From: a bacterium
GTDB taxonomy: Bacteria; CAIJMQ01
Reading direction: 5' to 3'
Assembly (NCBI GenBank): GCA_023135785.1
Contig: JAGLSL010000008.1
Location: 1 to 48,222 of the forward strand
Length of the DNA: 48,222 nucleotides
The notes below the pieces were generated by a model, which did no database searches, was not told where the DNA came from, and saw only the letters and a program-made list of their open reading frames with translations. This document shows, piece by piece, positions 1,313-46,242 of this stretch. A program made the position numbers and the translations under genes. Position 1 is the stretch's first letter. Every line of letters begins with the position of its first letter.

Positions 1313-2700
1313 AAAGAAGACCCGTAAAAGAAAGAATAAAAGATTTTGGGGAAGTTGCTCTCGGTTTTAGCAAAGAAGAAGCAATAGCCGAAGCAAAAAG
1401 ATGTCTGCAATGCAAAAAACCTCTTTGTATTAAAGGATGTCCCGTTCAGATAAATATTCCTAAATTCATAAAAGAAATTGCCGAAGAAAAATTCAGTGAT
1501 GCGATTAAAACATTAAAAGAAACTAACAGTCTGCCTGGAATATGCGGGAGAGTATGTCCGCAGGAAACTCAATGCGAAATGTTTTGTGTCTTGGGCAAAA
1601 AAGGAAAACCAATAGATATCGGCTCACTTGAAAGATTTGCATCGGACGAGGGAAAGAACGAGGGACGAGGGACGAGGGACGAAGGACGCAATAAATTCCT
1701 CAATCCGCAATCCTCAATCCGCAATGGTATTAAGACAACGGTCGTTGGTTCGGGACCTGCGGGACTTACTTGCGCGGGGGAACTTGCAAAAATGGGTTAT
1801 GAAGTAACAATATTTGAAAGTCTGCACAAGGCAGGCGGTGTATTAAGATACGGCATACCAGAATTTAGAATGCCCCGCGATGTTTTAGACAGTGAAATAC
1901 AATATGTAAAAGATTTGGGGGTAAAAATAGAGTGCGATGTTTTAATAGGAAAAACATTTTCCATAGACGAACTTTTTCAGGAAGGATATAAAGCAATATT
2001 CATCGCAAGCGGCGCAGGCTATCCGCAATTTTTGAATATAGAAGGAGAGAATGCAAACGGAGTTTATTCGGCAAACGAATTTCTTACCAGAGCGAACCTG
2101 ATGAAAGCATATGATAAACAATATCACACCCCTATAAAAGTCGGCAAAAAAGTAGGCGTGATAGGCGGAGGCAATGTCGCAATGGATGCGGCAAGAGTGG
2201 CTCTTAGATTAGGAGCGGATAATGTCTATTTAGTTTATCGCCGAACTGAAAAAGAAATGCCTGCAAGAGAAGAAGAAAGGGAGAACGCCAAAGAAGAAGG
2301 AGTAATTTTTAAAATCCTCACTCAACCCGTCAAAATAAAAACAGACGACAAGGGATGGGTGAAAGAACTTGAGTGTTTGCAAATGAAACTTGGCAAGCCG
2401 GATGATTCCGGAAGAAGAAGACCCCTTCCGATTAAAGATTCCAATTTTTCTATTCCTTTAGATACTATTGTTATCGCAATAGGACAAAATCCAAACCCCC
2501 TTATCCCCTCATCCACTCCGAACTTAAAAACAGGCAAAAAGGGAACAATAGAAGCAAATGAAGTCGGAGCAACATCCATCGAAGGAGTATTCGCAGGCGG
2601 CGATATAGTAACAGGCGCCGCAACGGTCATAGAAGCAATGGGCGCAGGAAGAAAAACGGCAAAGGCAATGGATGAGTATATACGCTCCGCTAAGACCTAA
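1309..2700 (+). CDS. nfnB: GltD-like NADPH oxidoreductase large subunit (NfnB / homotetrameric glutamate synthase type)
   Basis: 463 aa. N-terminal Fe-S Cys motifs (RCLQCKKPLCIKGCPV, CGRVCPQETQCE). Two dinucleotide folds (VVGSGPAGL, VIGGGNVAMD). C-terminal GGDIVTGAATVIEAMGAGR. Confidence 0.75.
   Translation: MKRRPVKERIKDFGEVALGFSKEEAIAEAKRCLQCKKPLCIKGCPVQINIPKFIKEIAEEKFSDAIKTLKETNSLPGICGRVCPQETQCEMFCVLGKKGKPIDIGSLERFASDEGKNEGRGTRDEGRNKFLNPQSSIRNGIKTTVVGSGPAGLTCAGELAKMGYEVTIFESLHKAGGVLRYGIPEFRMPRDVLDSEIQYVKDLGVKIECDVLIGKTFSIDELFQEGYKAIFIASGAGYPQFLNIEGENANGVYSANEFLTRANLMKAYDKQYHTPIKVGKKVGVIGGGNVAMDAARVALRLGADNVYLVYRRTEKEMPAREEERENAKEEGVIFKILTQPVKIKTDDKGWVKELECLQMKLGKPDDSGRRRPLPIKDSNFSIPLDTIVIAIGQNPNPLIPSSTPNLKTGKKGTIEANEVGATSIEGVFAGGDIVTGAATVIEAMGAGRKTAKAMDEYIRSAKT
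1658..1725 (+). repeat. in-frame microsatellite block inside nfnB: heptamer ACGAGGG x4 (1658-1685), then a perfect 14-mer CCTCAATCCGCAAT x2 (1698-1725)
   Basis: Read directly from the sequence. Encodes the low-complexity linker NEGRGTRDEGRNKFLNPQSSIRN just before the first GxGxxG fold. Confidence 0.85.
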
Positions 2701-2766
2701 GACTATAGACATTAGACCTTTGACTTTAGACTAAAAAACCACAGACATTAGACTTTAGACTAAAAA
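2692..2766. repeat. TAGAC-word low-complexity arm (left arm flanking the RM gene)
   Basis: taagacctaagactatagacattagacctttgactttagactaaaaaaccacagacattagactttagactaaaaa. The 13-nt tagactttagact (2749-2761) is the exact reverse complement of 5702-5714. The nfnB stop codon lies inside the arm. Confidence 0.8.
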
Positions 2767-2832
2767 CTCCCAACCTCTTATCAATTTACAATCCCTTTTT
2801 GTGATTTTTCTCATTGTGTTTCGTCTTATTAT

Positions 2833-5517
2833 TTATTTTATAATAACCCCATACTCAGACAATCTCTTATAAGCTTCTTTTAATTTTTTCTTAACCGTTT
2901 CAATGACTTCATATTTATTTGCTATTTCTTTTTGCTTGGCTAAATCAAATTTTCCAGTAGATGTTATGGGTATCTTTATATTTTTTACATCTTCTTCTAT
3001 GTGAGTTTTCTTTAATCTTTTGTTTCCTTGCCCCTGTATAAAATCTGGAAGATGGTTATTCAAAAGGTACAACAAATATTTATAGTCCAACTCTTTTTTG
3101 TGTTCTTCTTTAATTAAAAGCAATCCAGAATGACAAGTCATATTAAACTTACCCTTTCTATAAAAAACCATACCAGGATAAGAGCCATCTATAGACCAAG
3201 TTAAACCTTCAGCATCCCAATCATAATGATCTATTTTTCCTATCTCTCCATTATTTAGTGTTTGTGCAGAATAAACCGGATATTCACCTTGATGGTTGTT
3301 GATATACTCTTTGGTGTATTTTGCCTTGCCTAATTCTATATCAAATAATTCAGTGATCTTTTTATCTTTGAATTTTACCTTGCTGATTTCATCTTCGATT
3401 TTCTTAATCTTTTTTCTTGAAGAATTAATTTCTTTTTCTAAATCAGATAAAAACTCATTATAAGAACAAATGCCTAGTGTTTTCTTTTCTTCTTTTATTT
3501 TCAGATTAATAAGCTCTTTATCTTTCCAGAAATTCTCAATAATCCAGTATTTACTTTTATCAAAAACATTAAAATCTATTAGCTTGCATCTTGGATCATC
3601 AACTTTAAAAAAAGTTTTGCTTCCTTTAAATTGATTATAAAGATTCTTGGCTTGTTCTAAATCGTTATCTTCGATTTCAAACCTATCTGCGTCCAAGTTT
3701 TCCCCTATGCTCGAAACTAGATAACAAAAGATAGGGAAGTCCTGAATATCAACATTATTCTGTTTTTTCTCAACACATAAAATATAGGTTTTTTTATTTG
3801 TATTAAAAAAGGTTTTCATTGGTAAAGAAATTATAGCATTGATAAAACACTCTTTCTTAATTTCTTCCCTTAGTTTCTTATTAGCAAAATTATCCATAAT
3901 TCCATTAGGTATAACTACAAAAGCCCGCCCGTCTTTTCTTAAATTATTTAGTATCCATTTTAAAGCAAGCCCCTCAACACCAACACCTGAACACTTATAT
4001 TCTGATTCTAAACCTTCTTCTTTTATTTCGTTTCTTAAACTTCTTGAACCTTTTTTTACATAGGGTGGATTAGAAAGGATAAGGTCAGGTTTATCTCTTT
4101 CCTGTTTGAATTTTACTTTTAAAGTCCCCAGATTACTTTCGGAAAGTAGCTTGAATGTTCCATTAAAATATTCAGCATAATTCTTGGTTAAATTAGGTGC
4201 TTTTTGTACAATATCTGATAAATATATTAACATATTAGCTTTGGCCAATATTATAGTTCTATGTTCATCGTCGTCACTACCTTTATCATAACCAAGAAAT
4301 TTAACCCTCTTTGATGAGAAATTCGATCGAAACTGGCTCTTGAGTTTGGGATAAGTTTGTAAAGGCTCTAAAATAAAACCACCTACACCACAAAAAGGAT
4401 CACATATAAACTCTGCTGAATTTACATCGGCCATTTCTATAATAGCCCGCACAACTTTTCTAGGAGTAAAAAATTGCCCCAAACGGCTCTTGTCTTGGCT
4501 TTGCTTTAAAAAAGTCTCAAATAACTTTGTCTTAAATTCTTTCTTTATATTTCTTAGGGACTGGAATTCTGCGTATTTCTGTAACGAACTCTTGAATAGG
4601 TTGGCTTGACTGTAAACTGGCTTTCCTTTACCGTCAACAAAGATTGTTCCGTTTATTATTGTAGTCCCATCGTCTGCAATGGGAAACAGTTTTATTATCT
4701 CTACCCTTGAATTTCTTGCGTAAAACTCCAAAACCTCTTTGCTTGTTTTTTTATTTTTATACATATCCATCAAACTTTGAAAGTCATATGGAGTTTTTAG
4801 GACGTTGAGATCGCTTAAAAACTTAAAAATAAACAATTCGACAACATTATACAGACATTTTGTAGGATCTTTTCCTGTATTGACGTAAATATCCTGCCAA
4901 ACACTTTTAGCTAGATTTAATGGGTCAACTTCTTTTGTTTTCCTGAAAGTAGAGTTTTGTTCAGATATTTGATCTAATATCTTTTGAATTAAATCATAAG
5001 TCTCTTTAGTTGTTTCTTCTAATTTTTCATAGTTTAGCTGTTTTTGCTCCTTAATGAAAAAATTCGTCTGAACTTTTTGCTTATCTTCACTTAAAATAAA
5101 AGAATAACTCCTTTTTTCGTCTGTAGTTCTGTCTCTGTAATCATTCTTTGCATCATCTTGTCTTGGATTAATCCAGTAGGTTACAATTCCATCTGTAATA
5201 ACCCCAATACTTGCATCAAGTAGCTGGCACACATCATTACATTGTTCTATTGATTCTTTCTTTTGTTTGTCTGTTTGAAAGCCACTAGGTTTCTTCCACT
5301 CTATCACAAGTAAAACTTTTGGCTTTTTTTTGTCTCTCCTATCAACAAGAAGTCCGTCAGCCTTCCTCTTTTCATATTTACCATAGCTTCTTTTCTCAAT
5401 TATTCCACTATCCTTATATTGTTTTACTGTTGTGGAATGTAGAGGGAAGAACTCATAATCAACTATCAAAATACCCTTTTTGTCCAGCTCCCTTGAGATT
5501 TGTTCTTCACTAGCCAC
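2833..5517 (-). CDS. single-chain Type IIG restriction-modification enzyme (PD-ExK nuclease + gamma-class N6-adenine methyltransferase + HsdS-like target recognition domain)
   Basis: 894 aa. N-terminal ADGLLVD...VLLVIEWKKP fits D...ExK. FFTPRKVV and DPFCGVGGF form the AdoMet motif, and LILSNPPYVKKG is catalytic motif IV. A coiled-coil linker is followed by a C-terminal ~190 aa (ELGKAKYTKEY...EYPVYSAQTLNNGEIG...WSIDGSYPGMVFY) that resembles one Type I S-subunit TRD. The gene is visibly more AT-rich than its neighbours. Confidence 0.8.
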   Translation of the reverse strand: MASEEQISRELDKKGILIVDYEFFPLHSTTVKQYKDSGIIEKRSYGKYEKRKADGLLVDRRDKKKPKVLLVIEWKKPSGFQTDKQKKESIEQCNDVCQLLDASIGVITDGIVTYWINPRQDDAKNDYRDRTTDEKRSYSFILSEDKQKVQTNFFIKEQKQLNYEKLEETTKETYDLIQKILDQISEQNSTFRKTKEVDPLNLAKSVWQDIYVNTGKDPTKCLYNVVELFIFKFLSDLNVLKTPYDFQSLMDMYKNKKTSKEVLEFYARNSRVEIIKLFPIADDGTTIINGTIFVDGKGKPVYSQANLFKSSLQKYAEFQSLRNIKKEFKTKLFETFLKQSQDKSRLGQFFTPRKVVRAIIEMADVNSAEFICDPFCGVGGFILEPLQTYPKLKSQFRSNFSSKRVKFLGYDKGSDDDEHRTIILAKANMLIYLSDIVQKAPNLTKNYAEYFNGTFKLLSESNLGTLKVKFKQERDKPDLILSNPPYVKKGSRSLRNEIKEEGLESEYKCSGVGVEGLALKWILNNLRKDGRAFVVIPNGIMDNFANKKLREEIKKECFINAIISLPMKTFFNTNKKTYILCVEKKQNNVDIQDFPIFCYLVSSIGENLDADRFEIEDNDLEQAKNLYNQFKGSKTFFKVDDPRCKLIDFNVFDKSKYWIIENFWKDKELINLKIKEEKKTLGICSYNEFLSDLEKEINSSRKKIKKIEDEISKVKFKDKKITELFDIELGKAKYTKEYINNHQGEYPVYSAQTLNNGEIGKIDHYDWDAEGLTWSIDGSYPGMVFYRKGKFNMTCHSGLLLIKEEHKKELDYKYLLYLLNNHLPDFIQGQGNKRLKKTHIEEDVKNIKIPITSTGKFDLAKQKEIANKYEVIETVKKKLKEAYKRLSEYGVIIK

Positions 5518-5630
5518 TTTTTCCCCTTTGTTTATCTCATATATTATATAAACTCAAAGATAAAAAACAAGCATTATAAATTACATATTAGAATTCAAAT
5601 TCATTTAGAGAATTACAAATCAACTTATAA

Positions 5631-5801
5631 TACTTGCTAACTGCTAATTGCTAATTTTAACTTGTCTTTAGTCTTTTGTCTATTATCTGTTTTCTGTTTT
5701 CAGTCTAAAGTCTATAGTCTATGGTCTTTAGTCTAAGGTTTAATGTCTTTTTTCTTTGTTTTATTACTTGCTAATTGATAATTGATAGTTGCTAATTTTA
5801 A
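5631..5801. repeat. GCTAA-word direct repeats (5631-5660 and 5764-5801) bracketing the GTCTA-word arm (5663-5747)
   Basis: tacttgctaactgctaattgctaattttaa and ttacttgctaattgataattgatagttgctaattttaa have the same orientation. Between them lies gtctttagtc...cagtctaaagtctatagtctatggtctttagtctaagg. Confidence 0.8.
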
Positions 5802-5865
5802 ATTGTCTATAATCCCATCTTTTTCCTTTTCTCTCCTTCTGTTATATAATAAATCCTTAAAATAT

Positions 5866-5951
5866 GCGGACGTGGCGGAATTGGTATACGCGTATGGCTT
5901 AGGACCATATCCCTTCGTGGGTTGAGAGTTCAAGTCTCTCCGTCCGCACCA
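5866..5951 (+). tRNA. tRNA-Leu (anticodon TAG), CCA encoded
   Basis: Manual cloverleaf. Acceptor GCGGACG/CGTCCGC. Anticodon stem TATGG/CCATA with loop CTTAGGA. Long variable arm. T-arm GAGAG-TTCAAGT-CTCTC. Discriminator A followed by CCA. Confidence 0.9.
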
Positions 5952-5962
5952 CAATTAGGGAT

Positions 5963-5991
5963 TTGACAGTTTAGGATTTATGGTTTATAGT
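5963..5991 (+). promoter_or_regulatory. sigma-70-type promoter candidate for tRNA-Gly (TTGACA-N17-TATAGT)
   Basis: TTGACA at 5963-5968, a 17-nt spacer, TATAGT at 5986-5991, about 55 nt upstream of the tRNA-Gly 5' end. Confidence 0.4.
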
Positions 5992-6048
5992 TGTCGTTTC
6001 CAAATCGCATACAATAGACCATACACTATAGATTATTGGTTGGTTTTT

Positions 6049-6120
6049 GCGGGTGTAGCTCAGTGGTAGAGCGTCACGTTGCCAACGTGAGGGTCACGAG
6101 TCCGAATCTCGTCGCCCGCT
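6049..6120 (+). tRNA. tRNA-Gly (anticodon GCC), no encoded CCA, unusual T-loop TCCGAAT
   Basis: Manual cloverleaf. Acceptor GCGGGTG/CGCCCGC (one G-U pair). D-arm GCTC-AGTGGTA-GAGC. Anticodon arm TCACG-TTGCCAA-CGTGA. T-arm ACGAG-TCCGAAT-CTCGT. Confidence 0.85.
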
Positions 6121-6121
6121 C

Positions 6122-6155
6122 TAATAACAACACTGATATATCAGTGTTGTTATTA
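6122..6155. repeat. perfect 34-bp palindrome directly after tRNA-Gly
   Basis: taataacaacactgata|tatcagtgttgttatta is perfectly self-complementary. It could be a processing or termination hairpin, but there is no U-tract. Confidence 0.8.
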
Positions 6156-6404
6156 CCCCGAGAGTATCGGGAAAATGTCTGTTGGAGATTTTTTCGATGG
6201 TTTACGATACGGGGTTTGCAGTGGGATATCTGCGTGATAATCACCCCGAGAGTATCGGAAAATTTCCACGAGGAAATTTCTGTAAAAATGTCTGTTGGAG
6301 ATTTTTTCGATGGTTTACGATACGGGGTTTGCAGTGGGATATCTGTGTGAAAATTACCCCGCAGAGTATCCCGAAGGTTTTCGGGATGGCTTACGATACG
6401 GGGT
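6155..6404 (+). repeat. tandem array of three ACCCCG(C)AGAGTATCG...TTACGATACGGGGT palindromic units (6155-6215, 6243-6328, 6356-6404)
   Basis: The arms are conserved and the interiors differ in length (61, 86 and 49 bp). The inter-unit spacer TTGCAGTGGGATATCTG(C/T)GTGA is also repeated. Unit 2 is nearly identical to the unit at 10340-10426. Confidence 0.85.
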
Positions 6405-6415
6405 TTATATGGTAT

Positions 6416-6456
6416 AGAAGACAGTAAACAGACAACAGATGACAGAAAAACACAGA
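6416..6456 (+). repeat. GACAGA-word repeat (copy of 41126-41166)
   Basis: agaagacagtaaacagacaacagatgacagaaaa matches cagaagacagaaaacagacgacagatgacagaaaa at the carA 3' end with 2 mismatches. Confidence 0.8.
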
Positions 6457-6467
6457 ATGGATATGCA

Positions 6468-6556
6468 ATAGAAATACGGTAGAAATACAGTGGAAATACG
6501 TAGTATAAAAACAATATATTTCGAAATATTTCTATGTATTTCAATTTATTTCTGTC
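6468..6556. repeat. GAAATA/TATTTC word hairpin upstream of tig
   Basis: Left arm aatagaaatacggtagaaatacagtggaaatacg. Right arm tatttcgaaatatttctatgtatttcaatttatttct. The 20-mer atgtatttc(a/g)atttatttct is shared with 44584-44603. Confidence 0.8.
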
Positions 6557-6572
6557 CAATAAGGAAGAATAT

Positions 6573-7811
6573 ATGCAAATAGAAGTTAAAGATTTAAAAG
6601 AGAATAAAAAATCGTTATCTATCGAAATTCCTAAGGAAGAAGTAGATAAGAAACTGGCAAAAACATATGCGACGGTTTTAACCAGCGCCGCTATCCCTGG
6701 GTTTAGAAAAGGGAAAGCTTCCTTGAAAATATTAAAGCTTTATTACGGCAAGGATATTAAAAAACAGGTTTCGGAAGAACTTGTGGACGAATATTATCAG
6801 AAAGCAATTGATGAGAAAGATTTGAGGGTGGCTCCTTCACCGGAAATCAAGGAAGTAGAAGTGGAAGAAGGCAAACCTTTGAAGTTTGAAGCTATTGTTG
6901 AGACATTTGCCAAATTTAATATAGGAGAATATAAGGGAATAGAGATTGAAAGAGAGAAATCAGAAGTTGGCGACAAAGAGATAAACGCTGTACTTGAGAG
7001 AAAACGCGAAGAACTTGCAGAGCTTATCCCTGTTAATAACCGCCCGTCTATAAAGGGGGACCTTTTAACGGCTGATTATCATATAGAAATAGACGGGAAA
7101 GTCGCAAAAGAATTAAAAAACCAAAAATTAGTATTAGGCAAAACTCCTGTTCCCAAAGGATGGGAAAAAGAATTGACCGGAGTCAAGAAAGGTGATGTTA
7201 GAGAAATCCGCGAAAAAGCCAAATCGGAAAAATCTAAAGAGGTATTGTATAAATTTGTTGTCAAGGATGTTCAGGAAAGACGACTTTTAGCCCTTGATGA
7301 TGATTTCGCGAAAAAATTGGGCGATTTCGAAAGTTTGGCTAAGGCAAGAGAAAAGATAAAGGCAGAATTGGAGAAAATGGCTCGTTTTTACGAAGAAGAA
7401 AATCTAAGAAGAACTGTCATTGATAAAATCCTTAAAAATTCCGATATTGAAGCACCTGCTTCTTTAATTAAAAGGTTTACGGATTATTATAAATCTATGA
7501 ATAAGGATATGAGCGAAGAGGAAAGCAAAAAACTGGCGGAAGAAAATATTAAGAAAGAACTGATAGTGGACGAAATTGCTAAAAAAGAAGGGATAAAAGC
7601 AACTGACGAGGAAATAAGTAGAAGAAAAAGCCAGATTACAAGAAAAGAAATTTCGCAGGAAGATATCCGGGAAGACTTGAAAAAAGAAAAAGTTTTAAAA
7701 TTTCTTATTGACAACGCAAAAATAAAAGATAAAGCAAAAAAAGCGATTATTACCCCTGAAGAAGAGAATAAACTTTCTTCGGACAAAAAAGGAAGTATCA
7801 TAATTCCTTAA
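6573..7811 (+). CDS. tig: trigger factor
   Basis: 412 aa from MQIEVKDLKENKKSLSIEIP, with RBS AAGGAAG at 6561-6567. FRKGK ribosome-binding signature (GFRKGKAS). clpP follows. The ORF-track start at 6534 lies in a repeat arm and was not used. Confidence 0.9.
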   Translation: MQIEVKDLKENKKSLSIEIPKEEVDKKLAKTYATVLTSAAIPGFRKGKASLKILKLYYGKDIKKQVSEELVDEYYQKAIDEKDLRVAPSPEIKEVEVEEGKPLKFEAIVETFAKFNIGEYKGIEIEREKSEVGDKEINAVLERKREELAELIPVNNRPSIKGDLLTADYHIEIDGKVAKELKNQKLVLGKTPVPKGWEKELTGVKKGDVREIREKAKSEKSKEVLYKFVVKDVQERRLLALDDDFAKKLGDFESLAKAREKIKAELEKMARFYEEENLRRTVIDKILKNSDIEAPASLIKRFTDYYKSMNKDMSEEESKKLAEENIKKELIVDEIAKKEGIKATDEEISRRKSQITRKEISQEDIREDLKKEKVLKFLIDNAKIKDKAKKAIITPEEENKLSSDKKGSIIIP

Positions 7812-10000: not shown

Positions 10001-10007
10001 AAGTCAA

Positions 10008-10187
10008 GGCTCTGGGATATACGTGATGGAATAAATGGAATCTTGAGCCAAATAGTTAAAAAGGGAATTCTACTTTGGGTAAAGCGTGTACGTCCCGATG
10101 TAATGTCGGGAAAACACAAACTATTCAAGGGAATACCCACTTTGTAAAGCAGCTTTAAGATTCCTGTCCCACACGGTATCTTGGGGC
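10008..10187 (+). ncRNA. ssrS: candidate 6S RNA
   Basis: 180 nt starting 7-8 nt after a near-consensus promoter. The 5' end GCUCUGGGAUAUACGUG pairs with the 3' end CACACGGUAUCUUGGGGC, followed by UUUUU. A second helix forms between GGAAUCUU and AAGAUUCC. The centre is largely unpaired, and the apical hairpin is GUGU-acg-UCCCGAuguaaugUCGGGA-aa-ACAC. UGAGCC on the 5' side and UUCAAGGG on the 3' side resemble elements I recall in E. coli 6S RNA. Location downstream of zapA matches the E. coli zapA-ssrS arrangement. Confidence 0.55.
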
Positions 10188-10192
10188 TTTTT

Positions 10193-10339: not shown

Positions 10340-10426
10340 ACCCCGCAGAGTATCGGAAAATTTCCACGAGGAAATTTCTGTAAAAATGTCTGTTGGAGAT
10401 TTTTTCGATAGTTTACGATACGGGGT
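10340..10426 (+). repeat. ACCCCGCAGAGTATCGG...TTTACGATACGGGGT unit (near-copy of 6243-6328)
   Basis: Same interior as unit 2 of the array after tRNA-Gly, including the hairpin GAAATTTCCacgaGGAAATTTC, with 1-2 differences. Confidence 0.85.
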
Positions 10427-13964: not shown

Positions 13965-14023
13965 GTTATTTTATAATCCCGCAATCTGAATGATAATTTT
14001 TTCATCTTCAACGAAAAAATCAG

Positions 14024-14097
14024 CGTCCCCAGGAGGAGTCGAACCTCCAACCTACGGATCCGAAGTCCGTTGCTCTATCCAGTTGAGCTATGGGGAC
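14024..14097 (-). tRNA. tRNA-Arg (anticodon TCG)
   Basis: The reverse complement folds as GTCCCCA-TA-GCTC-AACTGGATA-GAGC-A-ACGGA-CTTCGGA-TCCGT-AGGTT-GGAGG-TTCGACT-CCTCC-TGGGGAC-G. Confidence 0.9.
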
Positions 14098-37433: not shown

Positions 37434-40058
37434 ATGATAAGCACAGGTATAAATGGTTTAGATAATATAATTACAGGATTAAGAATTGGGGATAATACTG
37501 TTTGGCAAATAGATGACATAAAGGACTATGCCCAACTCGTTAAACCGTTTGTAGCGCAGGCACTTAAAGACAAGAAAAAAGTTGTATACATGAGGTTTGC
37601 TTCCCATAAAGAACTGCTTAAACCTTCACCAAAAATAAAACGCTATGAACTTAATGCATATGCGGGATTTGAATCTTTTGCCACAAAAGTCAACAACATA
37701 ATTACACGGGAAGGCGAAGGCGCATATTATGTATTTGACTGCCTTTCAGAACTTCTTTCAGCCTGGGCTACCGACCTTATGATAGGAAACTTTTTCATGG
37801 TCACTTGTCCTTATCTTTACGAACTTAAAACCGTCACATACTTCTCAATATTAAGATATAAACATTCCTTTAAGTCAATAGCCAGGATACGTGAGACAAC
37901 TCAATTATTGGTGGATGTATATCATTGCCAAGGTAGTTTTTACATACATCCTCTAAAAGTTTGGAATCGTTATTCTCCCACTATGTTTCTTCCTCACCAG
38001 AAAGAAAACGGTAAATTTACACCTATTACAGACAGTGTTAACGCTGTAAAGTTGCTTTCTTATATACACGAAAAGGGAGCGGAGAGCGCAAAAAGAAATC
38101 TGGATTATTGGGACCTTTTATTTATCAAGGCAGAGGAACTACTCAAGAATAATGCTTCGAAGAATAAAATAAAAAATATGGTAAAAAAACTTTGCGGCAT
38201 AATGTTAACAAAAAACGAAAAAATATTATCCCTGGGGATACAACACTTCTGTTTAGAAGAACTTATCGAGATAAAATCAAGATTGATAGGCACAGGATAT
38301 ATTGGCGGGAAAAGCACAGGAATGCTTCTTGCTCGAAAAATTCTTTCGGAGAACAAATTGCTTAATTGGGAGAAAATCTCAGAATCGCACGACTCATTTT
38401 ATATAGGTTCGGATATATTCTATTCATACATAGTGCAGAACCGATTATGGAAACTACGTATGCAACAGAAAACAGAGGGCGAATACTTCAAAGTAGCAAA
38501 AATCCTAAAAGAAAAGATACTTTATGGAACCTTTCCTGAAGAAATTATGGAACACTTTCAGCAGATTATAGAATATTTTGGCTCATCGCCTATCATAATA
38601 CGCTCAAGTTCACTTTTAGAAGACGGTTTTGGCAACGCATTTGCCGGAAAATATGAAAGCATATTTTTAGCCAATCAAGGAAGCCCCGAACAAAGATATA
38701 TTCAATTTGCAGAAGCTGTAAAGAAAGTATATTCAAGCACTATGAGCGAAGACGCCCTTGCATATAGAAAACAAAGAGGCCTGGATAAATTAGACGAACA
38801 AATGGCGCTGTTGGTGCAAAGAGTTTCGGGCGCCCCTCACCAAGAGTATTTCTTTCCTGACCTTGCGGGAGTTGGTCTATCTCACAATATATACATGTGG
38901 AATGAAAATATGAATCCAAAGGCAGGAATACTCAGATTAGTTTTTGGACTTGGAACAAGAGCAGTTAACCGCGTTGAAGGGGATTATCCTAGAATGGTTG
39001 TACTCGACAATCCTTTACAAAGACCATACGCAGAAAAAGATGACTTGAGAAAATTTTCACAACACGAAGTAGACCTTATAAACATAAAAGAAAATGCTTT
39101 TAAGACCATCCCTTTCGAAAATCTTATAAATGAAAAATCTTATGTAAATATAGACCGCGTCGCTGTAAAAGATTATGAGTCCATACACATGATGAGTAAG
39201 AACGACACCGAAGACAAAGAATATTGGATATTGACACTGGATAATGTATTTAACGGTAATACATTGATAAGTTTATTTAAAAAGATATTAAAATCACTTG
39301 AGAAAAGTTACGGCTATCCTGTCGAGATAGAATTTACGGTAAACTTTGTAAGGGATAATACCTTCAAAATAAATTTACTGCAATGCAGGCCACTACAGAC
39401 AACGGGGCGCGGACGTAGAGTTGGGATGCCAAATATTGTAAAGAGAGAAAATATATTCTTCCAGTCACAAGGATATTTTCTGGGAGGCAATATTTCGCAG
39501 GAAATACGAAGGATTGTATATATTGACCCACAGAAATATAGTAAACTTATATTATCTGATAAATATGAAATCGCCCGTATAGTAGGAAGATTAAACAGCT
39601 GCATAGAAAGCAGGGAAAAGTTACCCACTCTTCTTATGGGACCAGGAAGATGGGGCACCACAACACCATCCTTAGGTATACCGGTAAAATTTGCAGAAAT
39701 AAACAATGTGGCAATCCTTGCAGAAGTCGCCTTCTCGGAAGGTAACCTTATGCCTGAACTGTCTTTCGGAACACATTTTTTCCAGGACTTGGTTGAAACA
39801 AACATATTCTATGTTGCATTGTTTCCTGAGAAAAAATCTGCCCGCTTCGCCGAGAGGCAAGCAGGCGGAGATATTATATTCAACGATAAATTTTTCAAGA
39901 AAGATAAAAATTTACTCGCAAAACTTGTGCCTCAATCGGCTAAATATAAAGATGTTATCGGTGTATATGATATAAGTAGCGGAGATTTAAAAATAATGTC
40001 AGACATAGTCTCGCAGAAGATTATATGTTTTTCAGACTCAAAAAGGATACTTAAATGA
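37434..40058 (+). CDS. uncharacterised PEP/pyruvate-binding (PPDK_N, ATP-grasp-like) domain protein with a degenerate KaiC/RecA-like N-terminal domain
   Basis: 874 aa. The centre has IGGKSTGMLLARKIL and IIIRSSSLLEDGFGNAFAGKYESIFL, resembling the nucleotide-binding domain of PEP synthase/PPDK. I found no phosphohistidine swivel motif (G.TSH). The N-terminus GINGLDNIITGLRIGDNTVWQIDD resembles the KaiC/RadA entry motif but has no GxxGxGK(S/T). The stop overlaps the carA start (ATGA at 40055). Confidence 0.7.
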   Translation: MISTGINGLDNIITGLRIGDNTVWQIDDIKDYAQLVKPFVAQALKDKKKVVYMRFASHKELLKPSPKIKRYELNAYAGFESFATKVNNIITREGEGAYYVFDCLSELLSAWATDLMIGNFFMVTCPYLYELKTVTYFSILRYKHSFKSIARIRETTQLLVDVYHCQGSFYIHPLKVWNRYSPTMFLPHQKENGKFTPITDSVNAVKLLSYIHEKGAESAKRNLDYWDLLFIKAEELLKNNASKNKIKNMVKKLCGIMLTKNEKILSLGIQHFCLEELIEIKSRLIGTGYIGGKSTGMLLARKILSENKLLNWEKISESHDSFYIGSDIFYSYIVQNRLWKLRMQQKTEGEYFKVAKILKEKILYGTFPEEIMEHFQQIIEYFGSSPIIIRSSSLLEDGFGNAFAGKYESIFLANQGSPEQRYIQFAEAVKKVYSSTMSEDALAYRKQRGLDKLDEQMALLVQRVSGAPHQEYFFPDLAGVGLSHNIYMWNENMNPKAGILRLVFGLGTRAVNRVEGDYPRMVVLDNPLQRPYAEKDDLRKFSQHEVDLINIKENAFKTIPFENLINEKSYVNIDRVAVKDYESIHMMSKNDTEDKEYWILTLDNVFNGNTLISLFKKILKSLEKSYGYPVEIEFTVNFVRDNTFKINLLQCRPLQTTGRGRRVGMPNIVKRENIFFQSQGYFLGGNISQEIRRIVYIDPQKYSKLILSDKYEIARIVGRLNSCIESREKLPTLLMGPGRWGTTTPSLGIPVKFAEINNVAILAEVAFSEGNLMPELSFGTHFFQDLVETNIFYVALFPEKKSARFAERQAGGDIIFNDKFFKKDKNLLAKLVPQSAKYKDVIGVYDISSGDLKIMSDIVSQKIICFSDSKRILK
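39837..39872 (+). repeat. GC-rich mini-palindrome TCTGCCCGC...GGCGGAGA, in frame inside the 874-aa gene
   Basis: Encodes SARFAERQAGGD, in the same reading frame relative to the arm as the pdxA copy (PARQSLSGGG). Confidence 0.5.
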
Positions 40059-41155
40059 AGGCGAAACTTGCTCTTGAAGACGGGACGGTATGGGAAGGAT
40101 TAAATTTCGGCGCAAAAGGTGAAAGCTATGGTGAAATAGTTTTCAATACCAGCATGGCCGGCTATCAGGAAATACTTACCGACCCTTCCTACAAGGGTCA
40201 GATTGTTGCCATGACTTATCCCCTCATCGGAAATTACGGAATAAACAGCGAAGATGTGGAATCTATAAAACCCTTCTTAGAAGGTTTCGTAGTAAAAGAA
40301 TGCAGTCAAATCTCCAGTAGTTGGCGTTCAGAAAAAAGTCTGGATGAATACCTTAAAGAAAATAATATTATAGGCATAGAAGGCATAGATACGCGCGCTC
40401 TTACAAAACATATTAGATTGCAGGGAGCAATGAAAGCGGTAATCTCTACAAAAGATTTAGATAACAACTCATTAATCAAAAAAGCAAAAGCATCCGAGGG
40501 ATTGATAGGCAAAGATTTGGTCAAAGAGGTCACCTGTAAAAAAATACAAACTTGGAACGAGAGAGGTAAACACAAAGTTGTCGTATTGGATTGCGGGGTA
40601 AAATTCAATATCTTAAGAGAACTATCCAATAACAACTGTAAAGTGATTTTCCTGCCGGCTAAAACCGATGCAAAAACCATATTGGGTTTGAAACCTGACG
40701 GGCTACTACTCTCAAACGGCCCGGGCGACCCGGAAGGTGTTGCCTATGTTGTGGAAACCGTAAAAAAATTATTAGACAAGTTACCAATTTTCGGCATATG
40801 TTTCGGGCAACAAATGTTGGGGTTGGCTCTGGGCGGAAAAACATATAAATTAAAATTCGGACATCATGGAGCAAACCATCCCGTCAAAGATTTAAAAACA
40901 GGCAAAATTTACATAACCGCGCAGAATCACGGATTCTGTGTCGATATAAATTCTTTAAACAAAGAAGACATCGAAATTACACACGTAAACTTAAACGATA
41001 ATACTTTAGAGGGAATAAGACACAAAAAATTGCCCGTTTTTTCCGTGCAATTTCATCCTGAGGCAGGACCCGGTCCAAACGACGCAAAATACCTGTTCGG
41101 GGAATTTGTAGAGATGATGGATAAAGACAGAAGACAGAAAACAGACGACAGATGA
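40055..41155 (+). CDS. carA: carbamoyl-phosphate synthase small (glutaminase) subunit
   Basis: 366 aa. FGICFGQQ catalytic Cys and FSVQFHPEA. The last ~10 codons and the stop lie in the GACAGA word repeat. Confidence 0.95.
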   Translation: MKAKLALEDGTVWEGLNFGAKGESYGEIVFNTSMAGYQEILTDPSYKGQIVAMTYPLIGNYGINSEDVESIKPFLEGFVVKECSQISSSWRSEKSLDEYLKENNIIGIEGIDTRALTKHIRLQGAMKAVISTKDLDNNSLIKKAKASEGLIGKDLVKEVTCKKIQTWNERGKHKVVVLDCGVKFNILRELSNNNCKVIFLPAKTDAKTILGLKPDGLLLSNGPGDPEGVAYVVETVKKLLDKLPIFGICFGQQMLGLALGGKTYKLKFGHHGANHPVKDLKTGKIYITAQNHGFCVDINSLNKEDIEITHVNLNDNTLEGIRHKKLPVFSVQFHPEAGPGPNDAKYLFGEFVEMMDKDRRQKTDDR

Positions 41156-41222
41156 CAGAAAAGACAATAGGATTAATAATTTTTTAATTTCTGAGTTCTG
41201 TTTTCTGATATCTGACTTCTGA
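41126..41222. repeat. GACAGA/TCTGT word hairpin spanning the carA stop and the carA-carB spacer
   Basis: Left arm gacagaagacagaaaacagacgacagatgacagaaaagaca. Right arm tttctgagttctgttttctgatatctgacttctga is imperfectly complementary to it. Confidence 0.8.
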
Positions 41223-41229
41223 AAAAATT

Positions 41230-42951
41230 ATGCCTAAAAGAACGGATATAAAAAAGATATTAATAATCGGCGCAGGTCCTATCGTAATCGGACAGGCATG
41301 CGAATTTGATTATTCGGGAACACAGGCATGTAAAGTTCTCAAAGCCGAAGGATTTCATGTTATCCTGCTAAACAGCAATCCTGCAACGATTATGACAGAT
41401 CCGATAACAGCTGATAAAACATACATCGAGCCAATTACTCCCGAAATAGTTCAAAGAATTATTGAAAAAGAAAAACCCGACGCTATTCTGCCCACACTCG
41501 GCGGACAAACTGCGCTAAATGTTACCGTACAAGTTGCAGAAATGGGAATATTTGATAAATACAATGTGGAAGTCATAGGCGCAAATATACAAGCTATCAA
41601 AAAAGCCGAAAACAGAGAACTATTCAAAAAGGCAATGCATAAAATAGGGCTGGATTTACCCAGAAGCGACAAAGCGCACAGCTTAAAAGAAGCCTTAGAG
41701 GTGGTCGAAGAAATCGGAATTCCCGTAATTATAAGACCAAGTTTCACATTGGGAGGAACAGGCGGAGCAGTCGCATACAATATAGAAGAATTCAAACGAT
41801 TAGCTAAGACAGGTCTTGAATCGAGCATGATTAGCCAAATATTAATTGAAGAATCCGTCATCGGATGGAAAGAATTCGAATTGGAAGTTATGCGAGACGT
41901 AAAAGACAATGTTGTTATTATATGTTCTATAGAAAATTTTGACCCTATGGGGGTTCATACAGGTGATTCAATTACGGTTGCTCCCATACAAACTTTAACA
42001 GACAAAGAATATCAAAACATGCGTGATGCCTCAATTGCATGCATCAGAGAAATAGGTGTAGAAACAGGCGGTTCCAATGTTCAATTTGCGGTTAATCCGG
42101 ATAACGGACGAATGGTAGTTATTGAAATGAATCCCCGTGTATCAAGAAGTTCCGCATTGGCCTCCAAAGCAACAGGATTTCCCATTGCAAAAATAGCCGC
42201 AAAACTTGCCATAGGATATACGCTGGATGAAATTCCCAATGACATCACAAAAGAAACTCCCGCGTGTTTTGAACCAACAATCGATTATTGCGTAGTTAAG
42301 ATACCACGATTTACTTTCGAAAAATTCTCCGAAGCGAACGCTACTCTAACCGTATCCATGAAATCCGTAGGCGAGGCAATGGCAATCGGACGAACATTCA
42401 AAGAAGCGTTGCAAAAAGGATTAAGGTCTTTGGAAATAGGAGTAGACGGTCTTATGGATTTAAAATTTCAAGTTAGCGAAATTCAACTTTTCGAAAAGTT
42501 AAGAACTCCAAACGCCGAGAGAATTTTTTATATAAAATACGCATTAAAGAACGGTATGAATATAGACGATATTTATAAACATACTCAAATTGACAGATGG
42601 TTTTTACATAACATCCAAGAAATTGTAGAATTGGAAAAACAAATAACAGATTCCAGACAACAGATTTCAGACAACAGAAATCAGAAAATTAAAAATAAAA
42701 AACAAAAAGATATGTCATCTGATGTCCGTCCTCTGTCTTCTGATTTGTTATTGAAAGCTAAACAATTCGGGTTCAGCGACAAACAACTTGCAAGGATGCT
42801 AAAAACAGAGGAAGAAATTATTAGAAATTTACGTAATAAATTAAATATTAAAGCTGTATATAAATTGGTCGATACCTGCGGTGCAGAATTTGAAGCTTAC
42901 ACACCATATTACTATTCTACCTATGAAAAAGAAAACGAAAGCTGTAATTAA
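41230..42951 (+). CDS. carB: carbamoyl-phosphate synthase large subunit, N-terminal half only (first ATP-grasp plus oligomerisation domain)
   Basis: 573 aa. [30 protein letters not shown], then the ATP-grasp domain, ending at [27 protein letters not shown]. From memory this is where the second synthetase half of the ~1070-aa enzyme begins. Confidence 0.85.
42641..42752 (+). repeat. imperfect CAGA/TCTG word palindrome, in frame within carB
   Basis: aaataacagattccagacaacagatttcagacaacagaaatcagaa...tcatctgatgtccgtcctctgtcttctgatttgttatt. The ends AATAACA/TGTTATT are complementary. Encodes [34 protein letters not shown]. Confidence 0.75.
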
Positions 42952-44485
42952 AGAATATGTTGCGATTCTGGATTTTGGTTCGCAATACACGCAATTAATC
43001 GCTCGCAGAGTAAGAGAGTGTAAAATCTATTCCGAAATATTCCCATATACCGTCTCCCTTAAAAAAATTATCGCGGACAAACCCAAGGCTATCATTCTAT
43101 CCGGCGGGCCGGCAACAGTTACCTTGAGCAAGAGTCCGACTATATCAAAGCAGATATTCGAACTTGGGATTCCCGTATTAGGCATATGCTACGGCATGCA
43201 ACTTATGGCAAAATTATTTGACGGTAAAGTGAAGCGTTCTCCAAACCGCGAATATGGAAATGCAAAATTAAACATAGCAAAATCCGACAAAATTTTTAGC
43301 GGACTTAGCAAAAACTTCACCGTCTGGATGAGCCATGGGGACCAAGTACTGACTCTTCCCAAAGATTTCAAGGCAATCGCATACAGTTCAAACGCCAAAA
43401 TAGCAGCAATACAGAATAAAACAAAAAAATTATACGGCGTCCAGTTTCATCCTGAGGTAGTCCATACTCCTCAAGGTTTAAAAATAATAGATAATTTCTT
43501 AAAGAAAATATGCGGATGTTCTGCCAGCTGGACAATAAGTTCATTTATTAAAAATTCCGTAAAAGATATAAGAAAAGAAGTGGGAAACAACCGCGTTATT
43601 TGCGCTTTAAGCGGCGGAGTAGATTCTTCCGTATTGGCAATTCTTCTGCATAAAGCAATAGGGAAGAGACTTTCATGTGTTTTTGTTGATAACGGCTTAT
43701 TACGAAAAAATGAAGCGGCGCAAATTGTTAAAAAATTTAAACAGCAGTATAAACTAAATCTAATTCATGTCGATGCAAGTAAAAGATTTATAAAAGAATT
43801 AAAAGGTGTCATTGATCCTGAGGAAAAACGGCATATTATCGGTAAGGAATTCATAAAAGTATTTGAAGCCGAGGCAAAGAAATCAGGTAAAATAAAATTT
43901 TTGGCGCAAGGAACTCTTTATCCCGATGTAGTAGAATCTCAGTCCGTATTTGGAGGGCCTTCTGCCACAATAAAATCACACCATAATGTCGGAGGACTGC
44001 CCAAGAATATGCAATTTAAACTTATTGAACCATTCAGATCCTTATTCAAAGACGAAGTAAGAAAAGTCGGAGAAGAACTAAAACTTCCAGAAAACATAAT
44101 ATGGAGGCAACCTTTTCCCGGACCCGGATTGGCGGTAAGAATAATAGGAGAAATAACCGAAGAAAGAATAAATATCTTAAAAGAAGCTGATTCAAGAATT
44201 CAGGATGAAATAAAAGCCGCAGGTCTTTATAAAGAAATCTGGCAATCTTTCGGAGTCCTTCTTCCGATTAAAACAGTCGGGGTTATGGGGGACGAACGAA
44301 CTTATGAAAATGTTATTACTATAAGAGCCGTAACAAGTCAGGACGGCATGACTGCAGATTGGGTAAAATTGCCGTATGAATTACTGGGTAAAATTTCCAA
44401 CAGAATAATTAATGAAGTTAAAGGTGTAAACAGAGTGGTTTATGATATTTCAAGTAAACCGCCGGCAACAATTGAATGGGAATAA
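42923..44485 (+). CDS. guaA: GMP synthase (glutamine-hydrolysing)
   Basis: 520 aa from [39 protein letters not shown], the FHPE GATase triad, the SGGVDSS PP-loop and a C-terminal PPATIEWE. Overlaps the carB 3' end by 29 nt. Confidence 0.95.
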
Positions 44486-44634: not shown

Positions 44635-45261
44635 ATGATAGCAATAATTGACTACGGGATGGGAAATTTAAGAAGTGTTAGCAAAGCTCTGGAATCTGTC
44701 GGCGCAAAAACTATAGTCACAAATAAACCCGAAGACATAAAATCCGCCGATGCAGTAATCCTGCCAGGAGTTGGCGCATTTTACAGAGGCATGGAAAATC
44801 TAAAGGATAAAAAACTTTTGCCCGTTATATCCGAAGCTGTAAAAAGCAAAAAGCCCTTTTTGGGCATTTGCTTAGGATTACAACTCTTATTCACAGAAAG
44901 CGAAGAACACGGTATATCCAAAGGATTGGGGCTAATAAAAGGACGCGTTAAAAAATTCTCCTCCGGCTTAAAAATTCCACATATGGGATGGAACCAAATA
45001 AGACTAAAGACCGAAGACCAAAGACCAAAGACCATAAACTTATTTAAAGATATACCGGATGAAAGTTATTTTTACTTCGTGCATTCTTATTACGTAGAGC
45101 CTGAAGACAAAAACACTATTATTGCTACTACCAATTATGGCGAAAATTTTGTTTCGGCAATAAATAAAGATAATATATGGGGTGTCCAATTTCACCCCGA
45201 AAAAAGCTCGGATTTGGGATTAAAAATTTTAAAAAATTTCGTTGAATCAATAAAAAAATAA
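44635..45261 (+). CDS. hisH: imidazole glycerol phosphate synthase, glutaminase subunit
   Basis: 208 aa from MIAIIDYGMGNLRS. GICLGLQ catalytic Cys, HMGWN and QFHPEKS. The ORF-track start at 44584 lies in a repeat arm. Confidence 0.95.
   Translation: MIAIIDYGMGNLRSVSKALESVGAKTIVTNKPEDIKSADAVILPGVGAFYRGMENLKDKKLLPVISEAVKSKKPFLGICLGLQLLFTESEEHGISKGLGLIKGRVKKFSSGLKIPHMGWNQIRLKTEDQRPKTINLFKDIPDESYFYFVHSYYVEPEDKNTIIATTNYGENFVSAINKDNIWGVQFHPEKSSDLGLKILKNFVESIKK
45001..45035 (+). repeat. heptamer AGACC(A/G)A x4-5, in frame within hisH
   Basis: agactaa agaccga agaccaa agaccaa agaccat encodes LKTEDQRPKT, in a loop about 6 aa longer than I recall for E. coli HisH. Confidence 0.8.
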
Positions 45262-46110: not shown

Positions 46111-46242
46111 TAGTAACCAGTAACCTGTGTACTGTAACCAGAAAAATATGAAAGAAAATTTCCAGTTCGATTTTGAAAAGTTGAGTGTATATCTATGTAG
46201 ATTTTTAACTGTGAACTGTAAACTGGTTACTGTTAACTAACC
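46111..46242. repeat. GTAAC/GTTAC word hairpin between hisF and purF
   Basis: Left arm tagtaaccagtaacctgtgtactgtaaccag. Right arm taactgtgaactgtaaactggttactgttaactaacc. Confidence 0.8.
46148..46240 (+). pseudogene. 30-codon ORF, possibly the N-terminal remnant of a four-helix-bundle (23S rRNA IVS-type) protein gene
   Basis: MKENFQFDFEKLSVYLCRFLTVNCKLVTVN*. The first 15 aa resemble the F.FE.L.VY(Q/K) N-terminus I recall for TIGR02436-type proteins. The remainder is read-through of the right repeat arm. Confidence 0.3.

Follow-up and report, generated by a model that had tools for sequence, protein, structure and literature searches.

Heptanucleotide-Repeat Hairpin Read in Frame in the Split carB Gene of an Omnitrophota Bacterium

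The stretch of DNA analyzed here (the window) comprises positions 1 to 48,222 of contig JAGLSL010000008.1 of the bacterial assembly GCA_023135785.1 and has a GC content of about 37%. Its carB gene is split. Within the gene for the N-terminal half of CarB, an in-frame insert forms an imperfect hairpin whose arms are arrays of 7-nt units built on the words CAGA and TCTG. We established the anatomy of this insert, its distribution among related lineages, the relaxed constraint on the peptide that it encodes, and a length polymorphism of 21 nt between strains. The insert is probably a heptanucleotide-repeat hairpin of the kind known from short tandemly repeated repetitive (STRR) sequences and long simple-sequence repeats (LSSRs), carried as a tolerated passenger in a permissive loop of the split CarB. 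The coordinates of the features are collected in Table 1.

The product of the host gene matches residues 1-552 of Escherichia coli CarB and ends where the second half of the E. coli protein would start. Therefore, the gene is the N-terminal half of a split carB, and the hairpin at 42641-42752 is read in frame within this open reading frame (ORF). A preliminary description, made from the letters of the window, had pointed to a stretch with complementary ends at this place. The sequence was as quoted there, with six CAGA words in the left arm and four TCTG-type words (TCTG, TCCG, TCTG and TCTG) at 42718-42745 in the right arm, and the outer ends, AATAACAGAT and ATTTGTTATT, are 90% complementary. 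Folded as a single strand, the stretch gave one long imperfect hairpin of -25.2 kcal/mol, whereas shuffled sequences gave a mean of -13.6 kcal/mol (z -4.09) and none of 200 shuffles folded as well. The pattern CAGA-N3-CAGA-N3-CAGA was matched 11 times in the window versus 0.00 expected. The arms contain the three or more tandem 7-nt units that are characteristic of LSSR and STRR sequences. However, the near-identity between units that is expected of such repeats was not observed in the carB arms, the units of which share a 4-nt core alone and vary at the three remaining positions.

Part of the hairpin consists of host codons. The outermost stem is formed by native codons, for Q-I-T-D on the left and D-L-L-L on the right, and the last two right-arm units are the codons of a conserved L-S-S-D. 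The right arm begins with a degenerate unit, TATGTCA (42711-42717), and its first three units (42711-42731) code for the residues MSSDVRP. The loop motif AATAAARRACAAAA is common to all four insert-bearing lineages, namely the window and the loci L081, L089 and L084.

The extent of the insert was determined by alignment with E. coli CarB (1bxr). Residues 1-474 of the split CarB aligned to E. coli residues 1-478, and residues 499-570 to 481-552. This delimits the insertion to codons 475-498, with a net gain of about 22 amino acids between E. coli residues 478 and 481. The preliminary description had given a hydrophilic loop about 20 amino acids longer than that of E. coli CarB, in agreement with this result. 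The insert peptide is hydrophilic, and repeat-free relatives carry no loop of matching length or sequence. Among the 37 CarBs compared, the number of extra residues at this site ranges from none to about 45, and the loop length is highly variable. In the set of split CarBs with 78-93% identity, P0002 (573 aa) and P0035 (577 aa) have a similar insert, P0101 (569 aa) has a different one, and P0007, P0016, P0019, P0023 and P0103 (549-552 aa) have a short loop of E. coli length. The structural placement was made with this alignment and an AlphaFold2 model of the split CarB, which had a mean predicted local distance difference test score (pLDDT) of 78.6. In the model, the preceding helix runs to residue 487 and is followed by a coil at residues 488-503, with well-predicted helices on either side; over residues 481-490 the model reaches a pLDDT of 60, and over residues 491-500 one of 49. 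The insert is predicted to be in a permissive surface loop of the CarB oligomerisation domain.

Contigs from other cold-seep and sediment metagenomes (runs X1-X6) were aligned onto the region. An X4 contig with 2 mismatches in 325 nt (99% identity in the flanks) was without 21 nt at 42711, namely the units TATGTCA, TCTGATG and TCCGTCC, and the deletion leaves ...KQKD-LSSDLL in the protein. In a more divergent X6 contig, insertions after 42678 sum to +21 nt. These two alleles are known from the alignment tables, and run contigs may lose rare variants and break at repeats. Both length variants captured are whole multiples of three heptamers. Thus, each change of 21 nt keeps the reading frame. 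The whole-unit length polymorphism between strains that characterizes LSSRs is present (-21 in X4 and +21 in X6), and such 21-nt steps are the expected outcome of frame-preserving selection on a slipping 7-nt repeat. When the X4 allele was sought via an identical HisF protein, window-like contigs alone were returned. A second X4 contig (2281 nt, depth 13.5) has 33 unlike, GC-richer letters after 42678, beginning with CGTCACCCCGAGAAATTCGAAGAATTTCCG, and then ends. This continuation may be a GC-rich mini-hairpin in the carB apex, as in the locus L119 described below, or an assembly break.

The four related Omnitrophota lineages that carry the insert (window, L081, L089 and L084) share homologous insert DNA, which aligns throughout the loop and the right arm. 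The sister lineages P0103, P0007 and P0016 are without the insert. In a tree built without the insert columns, P0035 (insert) was grouped with P0103 (empty) at a Shimodaira-Hasegawa-like approximate likelihood ratio test value of 99. In the other clade, P0001 and P0002 (both with the insert) were grouped at 99, joined by the empty P0007 at 88 and then by the empty P0016 at 97. A second tree, with the insert columns kept, agreed with the first, and the insert-bearing L089 falls inside the second clade. Since the inserts of the four lineages align as homologues, the simplest history would be one origin, followed by several losses or by spread through recombination. The same alignment weakens the alternative that two independent gains lie behind the patchy distribution.

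Between the window and L081, the nucleotide identity was 79% in the insert and 91% in the rest of carB, and the amino-acid identity was 63% and 95%, respectively. The identities at codon positions 1, 2 and 3 were 0.80, 0.87 and 0.70 in the insert, and 0.95, 0.98 and 0.80 elsewhere. The flat profile in the insert therefore reflects relaxed constraint, and the insert peptide evolves almost without constraint at the protein level. The hairpin was kept in all four insert lineages (z -2.65 to -4.09), and the empty site of L085 gave no fold (z +0.3). No covariation support for the hairpin was obtained from these four sequences, a weak test in which the covariation term was +1.38, two of the 23 pairs were compensatory and nearly all were invariant. 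Selection on the structure would be neither demonstrated nor excluded by this result.

The same loop was located in 159 CarB loci. Fifteen of these reached the lag-7 threshold and four reached the threshold at control lags; the fifteen include the window and repeated loci of close relatives (L081-L083 and L088 represent one relative). Heptamer hairpins built on different words occupy the loop in five or more further lineages, and several of the arrays fold as hairpins. L119 has (AAGCTCA)x4, GC-rich mini-hairpins and (TTTCAGC)x4; L122 has (ACGGTCC)x4, an A-rich loop and (TGTSGAC)x3; L128 has (AGGGGTC)x4 followed by a C-rich complement; and L092, L096 and L087 have heptamer arrays with further words. 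Six lineages were read by eye, and in each the word of the right arm is the same as the lineage's own codons that start the next helix, mostly L-S-x-D/E. The codons are CTG TCT TCT GAT in the window, CTG AGT GCT GAA in L087, CTT TCA GCT in L119, CTG TCG ATT GAC in L122 and TTA CCC CTC ACC CTC CTG in L128. Either the arrays were seeded from the local sequence or the native unit was homogenised with the array. Neither option squares easily with a simple cut-and-paste element, and both would fit a repeat process acting in place.

The words of the carB insert were stated in the preliminary description to be shared with an intergenic hairpin at 41126-41222 and a repeat at 6416-6456. They are, and the likeness extends beyond the words. 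The half copy at 6416-6452 matches 41128-41166 at 35 of 38 bases. Over its full length, the carA-carB spacer hairpin can be aligned with the reverse-complemented carB insert at a score of 54 (30 for the top shuffle), and this inverted match covers part of the variable positions too. By eye, the spacer arms and the reverse-complemented carB arms are about 76-89% identical. The right arm of the spacer hairpin reads TTTCTGA GTTCTGT TTTCTGA TATCTGA CTTCTGA, and its left arm, 41126-41155, is the last 10 codons and the stop codon of carA. With the spacer hairpin as a query, nhmmer detected the carB inserts of L081 (6e-6), the window (6e-5), L089 and L084, best on the minus strand. These matches scored 21-27 bits, and the reverse complement of the spacer hairpin itself scored 21 bits; thus, the nhmmer signal to the carB inserts is partly generic. 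In all, three CAGA copies in 48 kb and many matching metagenome contigs were found; a family of the repetitive extragenic palindromic (REP) type would be expected to have many copies that are conserved beyond a word. In run X3, 276 records fell on 40900-41500, and the summed depth over the GACAGAN arm was 2000-7600 versus about 4 in the flanks. Right after the half copy, at 6457-6500 and upstream of the ORF 6534-7811, there are three units of about 11 nt, TAGAAATACGG, TAGAAATACAG and TGGAAATACG.

The spacer hairpin was compared between relatives. The spacers of the window and L084 are 92% identical over 61 nt, whereas the third positions of carB are 52% identical. L081, a closer relative, has a heptamer hairpin of a different word, TATAG/CTATA. 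In the X4 strain, the flanks of which are about 97-99% identical, the 107-nt spacer (41122-41230) is replaced by 87-90 unrelated letters. We considered whether this strain has the L081-type spacer and rejected it, as the X4 spacer is a third, unrelated sequence. P0103, P0007 and P0016 have almost no carA-carB spacer.

Heptamer arrays are not limited to the CAGA family. In the 48-kb window, 11-12 lag-7 arrays were detected versus 0-2 at lags 4-6 and 8-11, and L081 and L085 contain 11 lag-7 arrays each. In 167 loci (L001-L167; 1.19 Mb, many phyla), there were 158 lag-7 arrays versus about 5 at the control periods 5, 8, 10 and 11. Period 7 is thus more frequent than chance predicts and than any other period, as expected of LSSRs, and the clade of the window is several-fold denser in such arrays than the 1.19-Mb locus set. 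L119, with a GC content of 50%, has 9 period-7 arrays in 8.4 kb. According to the citations of Mrazek (2007) in PMC4679880 and PMC4692102, heptanucleotides are the most abundant LSSRs in most prokaryotes examined, and slippage was proposed as the cause of this abundance.

The commonest layout in the clade of the window is an array, a loop and a complementary array between genes; occasionally, the arrays are in loops or linkers of housekeeping genes. Two further in-frame cases occur in the window. One is in the linker of an NfnB/GltD-like gene, and this linker is 4-8 aa longer than in the PDB homologues. The other is in a loop of hisH, where the orthologous site has (AAGACAG)n in L081 and (AAAATGC)n in L085, the latter read from the translation alone. 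The X4 strain, about 99% identical in the flanks, has 93 different letters in place of the 42-nt hisH array at 45004-45045, and this difference of +51 nt leaves the frame intact. Several spacers share one word per genome, TAAGCT/AGCTTA in L081 and TAAGTT/AACTTA in L085. The idea that each spacer has a private word holds only partly, as spacers in one genome share words and the CAGA copies share more.

These results can be arranged in the following way. Replication slippage, in steps of 7-nt units, would lengthen and shorten the arrays. The inverted arm may stay complementary through template switching at quasi-palindromes or through copying from sibling hairpins, and the first copy may have been seeded from the local L-S-x-D/E codons or copied from a sibling hairpin. 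Selection on CarB would filter out only frameshifts and changes that damage the fold. Because selection merely filters, the insert would be a passenger of a repeat process at the DNA level and not a functional addition to the enzyme.

Several observations weigh against the slippage explanation. Simple recent slippage should yield identical units, and the units share the 4-nt core alone. The CAGA/TCTG cores are almost invariant over four lineages with third positions 52-82% identical; such invariance points to homogenisation, or to a DNA- or RNA-level constraint, beyond slippage alone. The inverted alignment between the carB insert and the spacer hairpin includes variable positions and fits the copying of a pre-formed element. 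Furthermore, the spacer shows 92% identity with its counterpart in the distant L084, yet it is replaced in L081 and in a strain that is about 97-99% identical, a pattern that suggests cassette exchange rather than gradual slippage. Finally, the covariation analysis gave no sign of a selected structure, although with four sequences it is weak either way.

The main alternative is that a discrete, non-autonomous mobile hairpin, such as a Rickettsia palindromic element (RPE), a REP doublet forming a hairpin (REPIN) or a miniature inverted-repeat transposable element (MITE), was inserted as a unit and persisted as an in-frame surface insertion. We regard this as a serious minority possibility. At least three copies of the CAGA family are present in 48 kb, the carB copy is inverted relative to the spacer copy, and the 6416 copy is 92% identical (35/38) to the latter. 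The spacer copy is 92% identical where the third positions of carB are 52% identical and is absent or replaced in closer relatives, hundreds of cold-seep metagenome contigs match the GACAGAN arm (276 records in X3), and one word is used by several spacers per genome in L081 and L085. On the other hand, inspection of the carB hairpin boundaries by eye revealed no target-site duplication and no terminal inverted repeats distinct from the arrays, the two features that define a MITE. Conserved codons of the host itself make up the outermost units, the CarB loop of other lineages holds hairpins with unrelated words, the length changes occur in heptamer units, and the nhmmer matches of 21-27 bits are partly generic. 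Functional roles are very unlikely, whether as an mRNA structure that tunes the translation, processing or stability of carA-carB-guaA or as a K/N/Q-rich loop that modulates the assembly of the split CarB. The hairpin is kept in four lineages (z -2.65 to -4.09), its word cores are more conserved than neutral third positions, and the operon has a sibling hairpin where carA and carB meet. However, sister lineages with the same split gene and operon are without the insert, its length is polymorphic among close strains, the peptide evolves nearly neutrally, there is no covariation, and like arrays occur in the unrelated genes nfnB and hisH. A specific CAGA-binding regulator is also unlikely as a general explanation, as the arrays use many different words. 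Chance low complexity or an assembly artefact is a negligible explanation. The region is AT-rich, its repeats are hard to assemble and X4 contigs break inside the array, but the insert is present in the independent assemblies L081, L082, L083, L084 and L089 (the first three are the Logan, JGI and Logan records of one relative) and in runs X1-X5, and chance is excluded by the shuffle and pattern statistics.

Beyond the repeat hairpin itself, a wider idea seems unlikely, less so than a functional role: in Omnitrophota, and at lower density in other phyla, an undescribed process might write, copy or exchange inverted heptamer arrays at permissive loops and operon spacers. Three observations fit the idea. 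The array word often derives from the sequence around it or has been homogenised with it. Turnover greatly outpaces point mutation: between strains that are about 97-99% identical, whole contents are exchanged, 107 nt of spacer for 87-90 other letters and 42 nt of hisH for 93 other letters. In addition, one hairpin is 92% identical across lineages with saturated synonymous sites. A protein that binds single-stranded nucleic acid, or the replisome, could have left the 7-nt period as its footprint; cold-shock domains bind about 7 nt. If such a process exists, core enzymes would carry strongly strain-variable loops as its by-product or substrate.

The preliminary description compared the insert with RPEs, which Ogata et al. 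in 2000 reportedly described as selfish, palindromic repeats that insert into protein-coding genes without disturbing the frame. Part of this comparison stands. Like an RPE, the carB insert is a palindrome of about 100 nt that belongs to a repeat family found between genes as well as in frame in ORFs, and it encodes a hydrophilic, putative surface segment of a housekeeping enzyme, here a loop of variable length predicted with low confidence. The part that is not supported is the transposition of a discrete element into the ORF. RPEs have a defined consensus and are restricted to Rickettsia, whereas here the arms are degenerate 7-nt arrays in an Omnitrophota host, the length changes in 21-nt steps between strains, hairpins with different words occupy one loop, and the outer units are host codons. 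By analogy, the insert would be RPE-like in its effect (in frame, tolerated and on the surface), while its dynamics appear to be those of heptameric simple-sequence repeats.

Among known heptanucleotide repeats are the cyanobacterial STRR sequences, GGGAATC of Xanthomonas and GGGGAYT of Nostoc (Rehm et al. 2015, PMC4692102), and the TAACTGA repeats of Beggiatoaceae, Cyanobacteria and Bacteroidetes (MacGregor 2015, PMC4679880). Such STRR and LSSR sequences resemble the window arrays in that the 7-nt unit is in strong excess, most arrays are intergenic and a few are within ORFs, some form convergent inverted pairs, and length and sequence vary between close relatives. The published arrays differ in that, for the most part, they repeat a single word of the whole genome directly and almost perfectly, whereas the window arrays have degenerate units with a 4-nt core, form array-loop-complement hairpins and use many words per genome. 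The in-ORF cases of TAACTGA are at protein termini (PMC4679880), whereas those described here are in frame in internal loops of core enzymes.

A further likeness was found for the spacer hairpin. In Geobacter metallireducens, the class 3 global regulator binding sites consist of five tandem heptanucleotides MTYCTGA (Aklujkar et al. 2009, PMC2700814), and the same genome has 49 GGACCGG x4 elements within and between genes (PMC2700814). The class 3 sites and the spacer hairpin share five tandem heptamers with a CTGA/TCAG core. Of the five units in the spacer right arm, three contain TTCTGA, and the left arm is the complement; the likeness is one of consensus and may reflect homology or convergence. 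The alignment of class 3 sites is drawn looping from strand to strand, as for classes 1 and 2, which we read as sites on opposite strands (PMC2700814). Unlike the present arrays, these sites are from another phylum and were interpreted as regulator binding sites without an experimental test, and the in-frame read-through, strain polymorphism and loop reuse seen here are not described for G. metallireducens (PMC2700814). REP sequences and bacterial interspersed mosaic elements, as well as REPINs with their REP-associated tyrosine transposases (RAYTs) (Bertels & Rainey 2011, PMC3116915), also resemble the arrays as short hairpins in many copies, in spacers of co-directional genes and in genome-specific families, and REPs occur inside ORFs too (Bertels & Rainey 2011, PMC3116915). 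However, REPs are palindromes with a conserved sequence and a length of about 20-40 nt, and a cognate RAYT transposase mobilises them (PMC3116915), whereas the arrays described here have an internal periodicity of 7 nt. In the literature searched, no description of a heptamer-hairpin repeat type for Omnitrophota was found.

The carB insert shows that a repeat sensitive to the reading frame, and variable among near-identical strains, can reside in an essential biosynthetic enzyme. The gain or loss of one 7-nt unit would shift the frame of carB, and the two natural variants captured show three-unit steps only. The repeat is therefore a natural gauge of how selection filters a very active repeat process at the DNA level. 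The site between residues 478 and 481 (E. coli numbering) is a permissive insertion site of CarB, which may serve protein engineering. Since contigs break at heptamer hairpins, these need to be recognized in annotation and in the assembly of metagenome-assembled genomes (MAGs); another possible use is as markers that tell strains apart at a fine scale. Why prokaryotic repeats favour 7 nt is a long-standing question, for which the dense arrays with fast turnover make this lineage a good study case.

Table 1. Coordinates of the carB insert, its host gene and the related heptamer arrays in the window
Feature	Positions	Strand	Evidence or remark
Split carB, N-terminal half, 573 aa	41230..42951	+	Pfam CPSase_L_D1/D2/D3 (D3 = oligomerisation)
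Whole in-frame imperfect hairpin, 112 bases	42641..42752	+	Minimum free energy -25.2 kcal/mol, z -4.09
Left arm, six heptamers: CAGATTC CAGACAA CAGATTT CAGACAA CAGAAAT CAGAAAA	42647..42688	+	Exact 7-nt spacing
A-rich apical loop, encodes K/N-rich residues	42689..42710	+	Read from the sequence
Right arm: TATGTCA TCTGATG TCCGTCC TCTGTCT TCTGATT	42711..42745	+	7-nt units
Codons 475-498, without counterpart in E. coli CarB	42652..42723	+	Alignment to 1bxr
Sibling CAGA/TCTG heptamer hairpin in the carA-carB spacer, five units per arm	41126..41222	+	z -5.07
Half copy of the CAGA family, left arm alone	6416..6452	+	Non-coding, downstream of tRNA-Gly
In-frame heptamer array (AAGACCN)x5 in a hisH loop	44998..45042	+	Lag-7 scan
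In-frame heptamer array pair in the linker of the NfnB/GltD-like gene, GAGGGAC x4, then CCTCAAT/CCGCAAT x4	1651..1728	+	Lag-7 scan

The closest database relatives of the split CarB are MAGs of Candidatus Omnitrophota, and the split and the C-terminus ...YEKENESCN are common to all close relatives. A scan of genome contigs for CarB relatives gave no match closer than 70% identity, and a scan of metagenomes for close relatives returned two loci, L088 (the same contig as L082) and L089. In the window, carA (40055-41155) lies upstream of the carB half, which is followed by guaA, hisH, hisF, a purF-like gene and pyrG; these downstream identities are based on the ORF sizes in the window and, for the orthologous locus L081, on Pfam domain calls. 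As listed, the guaA ORF (42881-44485) overlaps the 3' end of carB. The order carA, carB-N, guaA, hisH, hisF, purF-like gene and pyrG recurs in L081 and L085, and the neighbours of carB in L087 and L089 differ from it.

Between hisF and the purF-like gene, L081 (14814-15355) and L085 (10745-11262) have a small gene for a four-helix bundle (Pfam 23S_rRNA_IVP/bAvd). This bAvd-type gene is flanked on both sides by heptamer arrays (TAAGCT/AGCTTA in L081), as if it were in the loop of a hairpin. At the same site, the window has a 150-nt spacer with an AACTG array (46198-46238), and L085 has a 48-aa remnant. In L085, (AAGACCN)x5 is in frame inside hisF (10364-10414), and the window has that word in hisH.

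Arrays of a TAGAC word and their complement (GTCTA/GTCTT), at 2689-2770 and 5660-5739, flank a minus-strand ORF of 894 aa (2833-5517) and adjoin tRNA-Leu and tRNA-Gly. The heptamer GTCTTTN resembles what we take to be the binding consensus of cold-shock proteins. Other RNA genes of the window are one for 6S RNA (Rfam, 95.6 bits; 10006-10191) and tRNA genes for Leu, Gly and Arg (5866-5951, 6049-6121 and 14023-14097).

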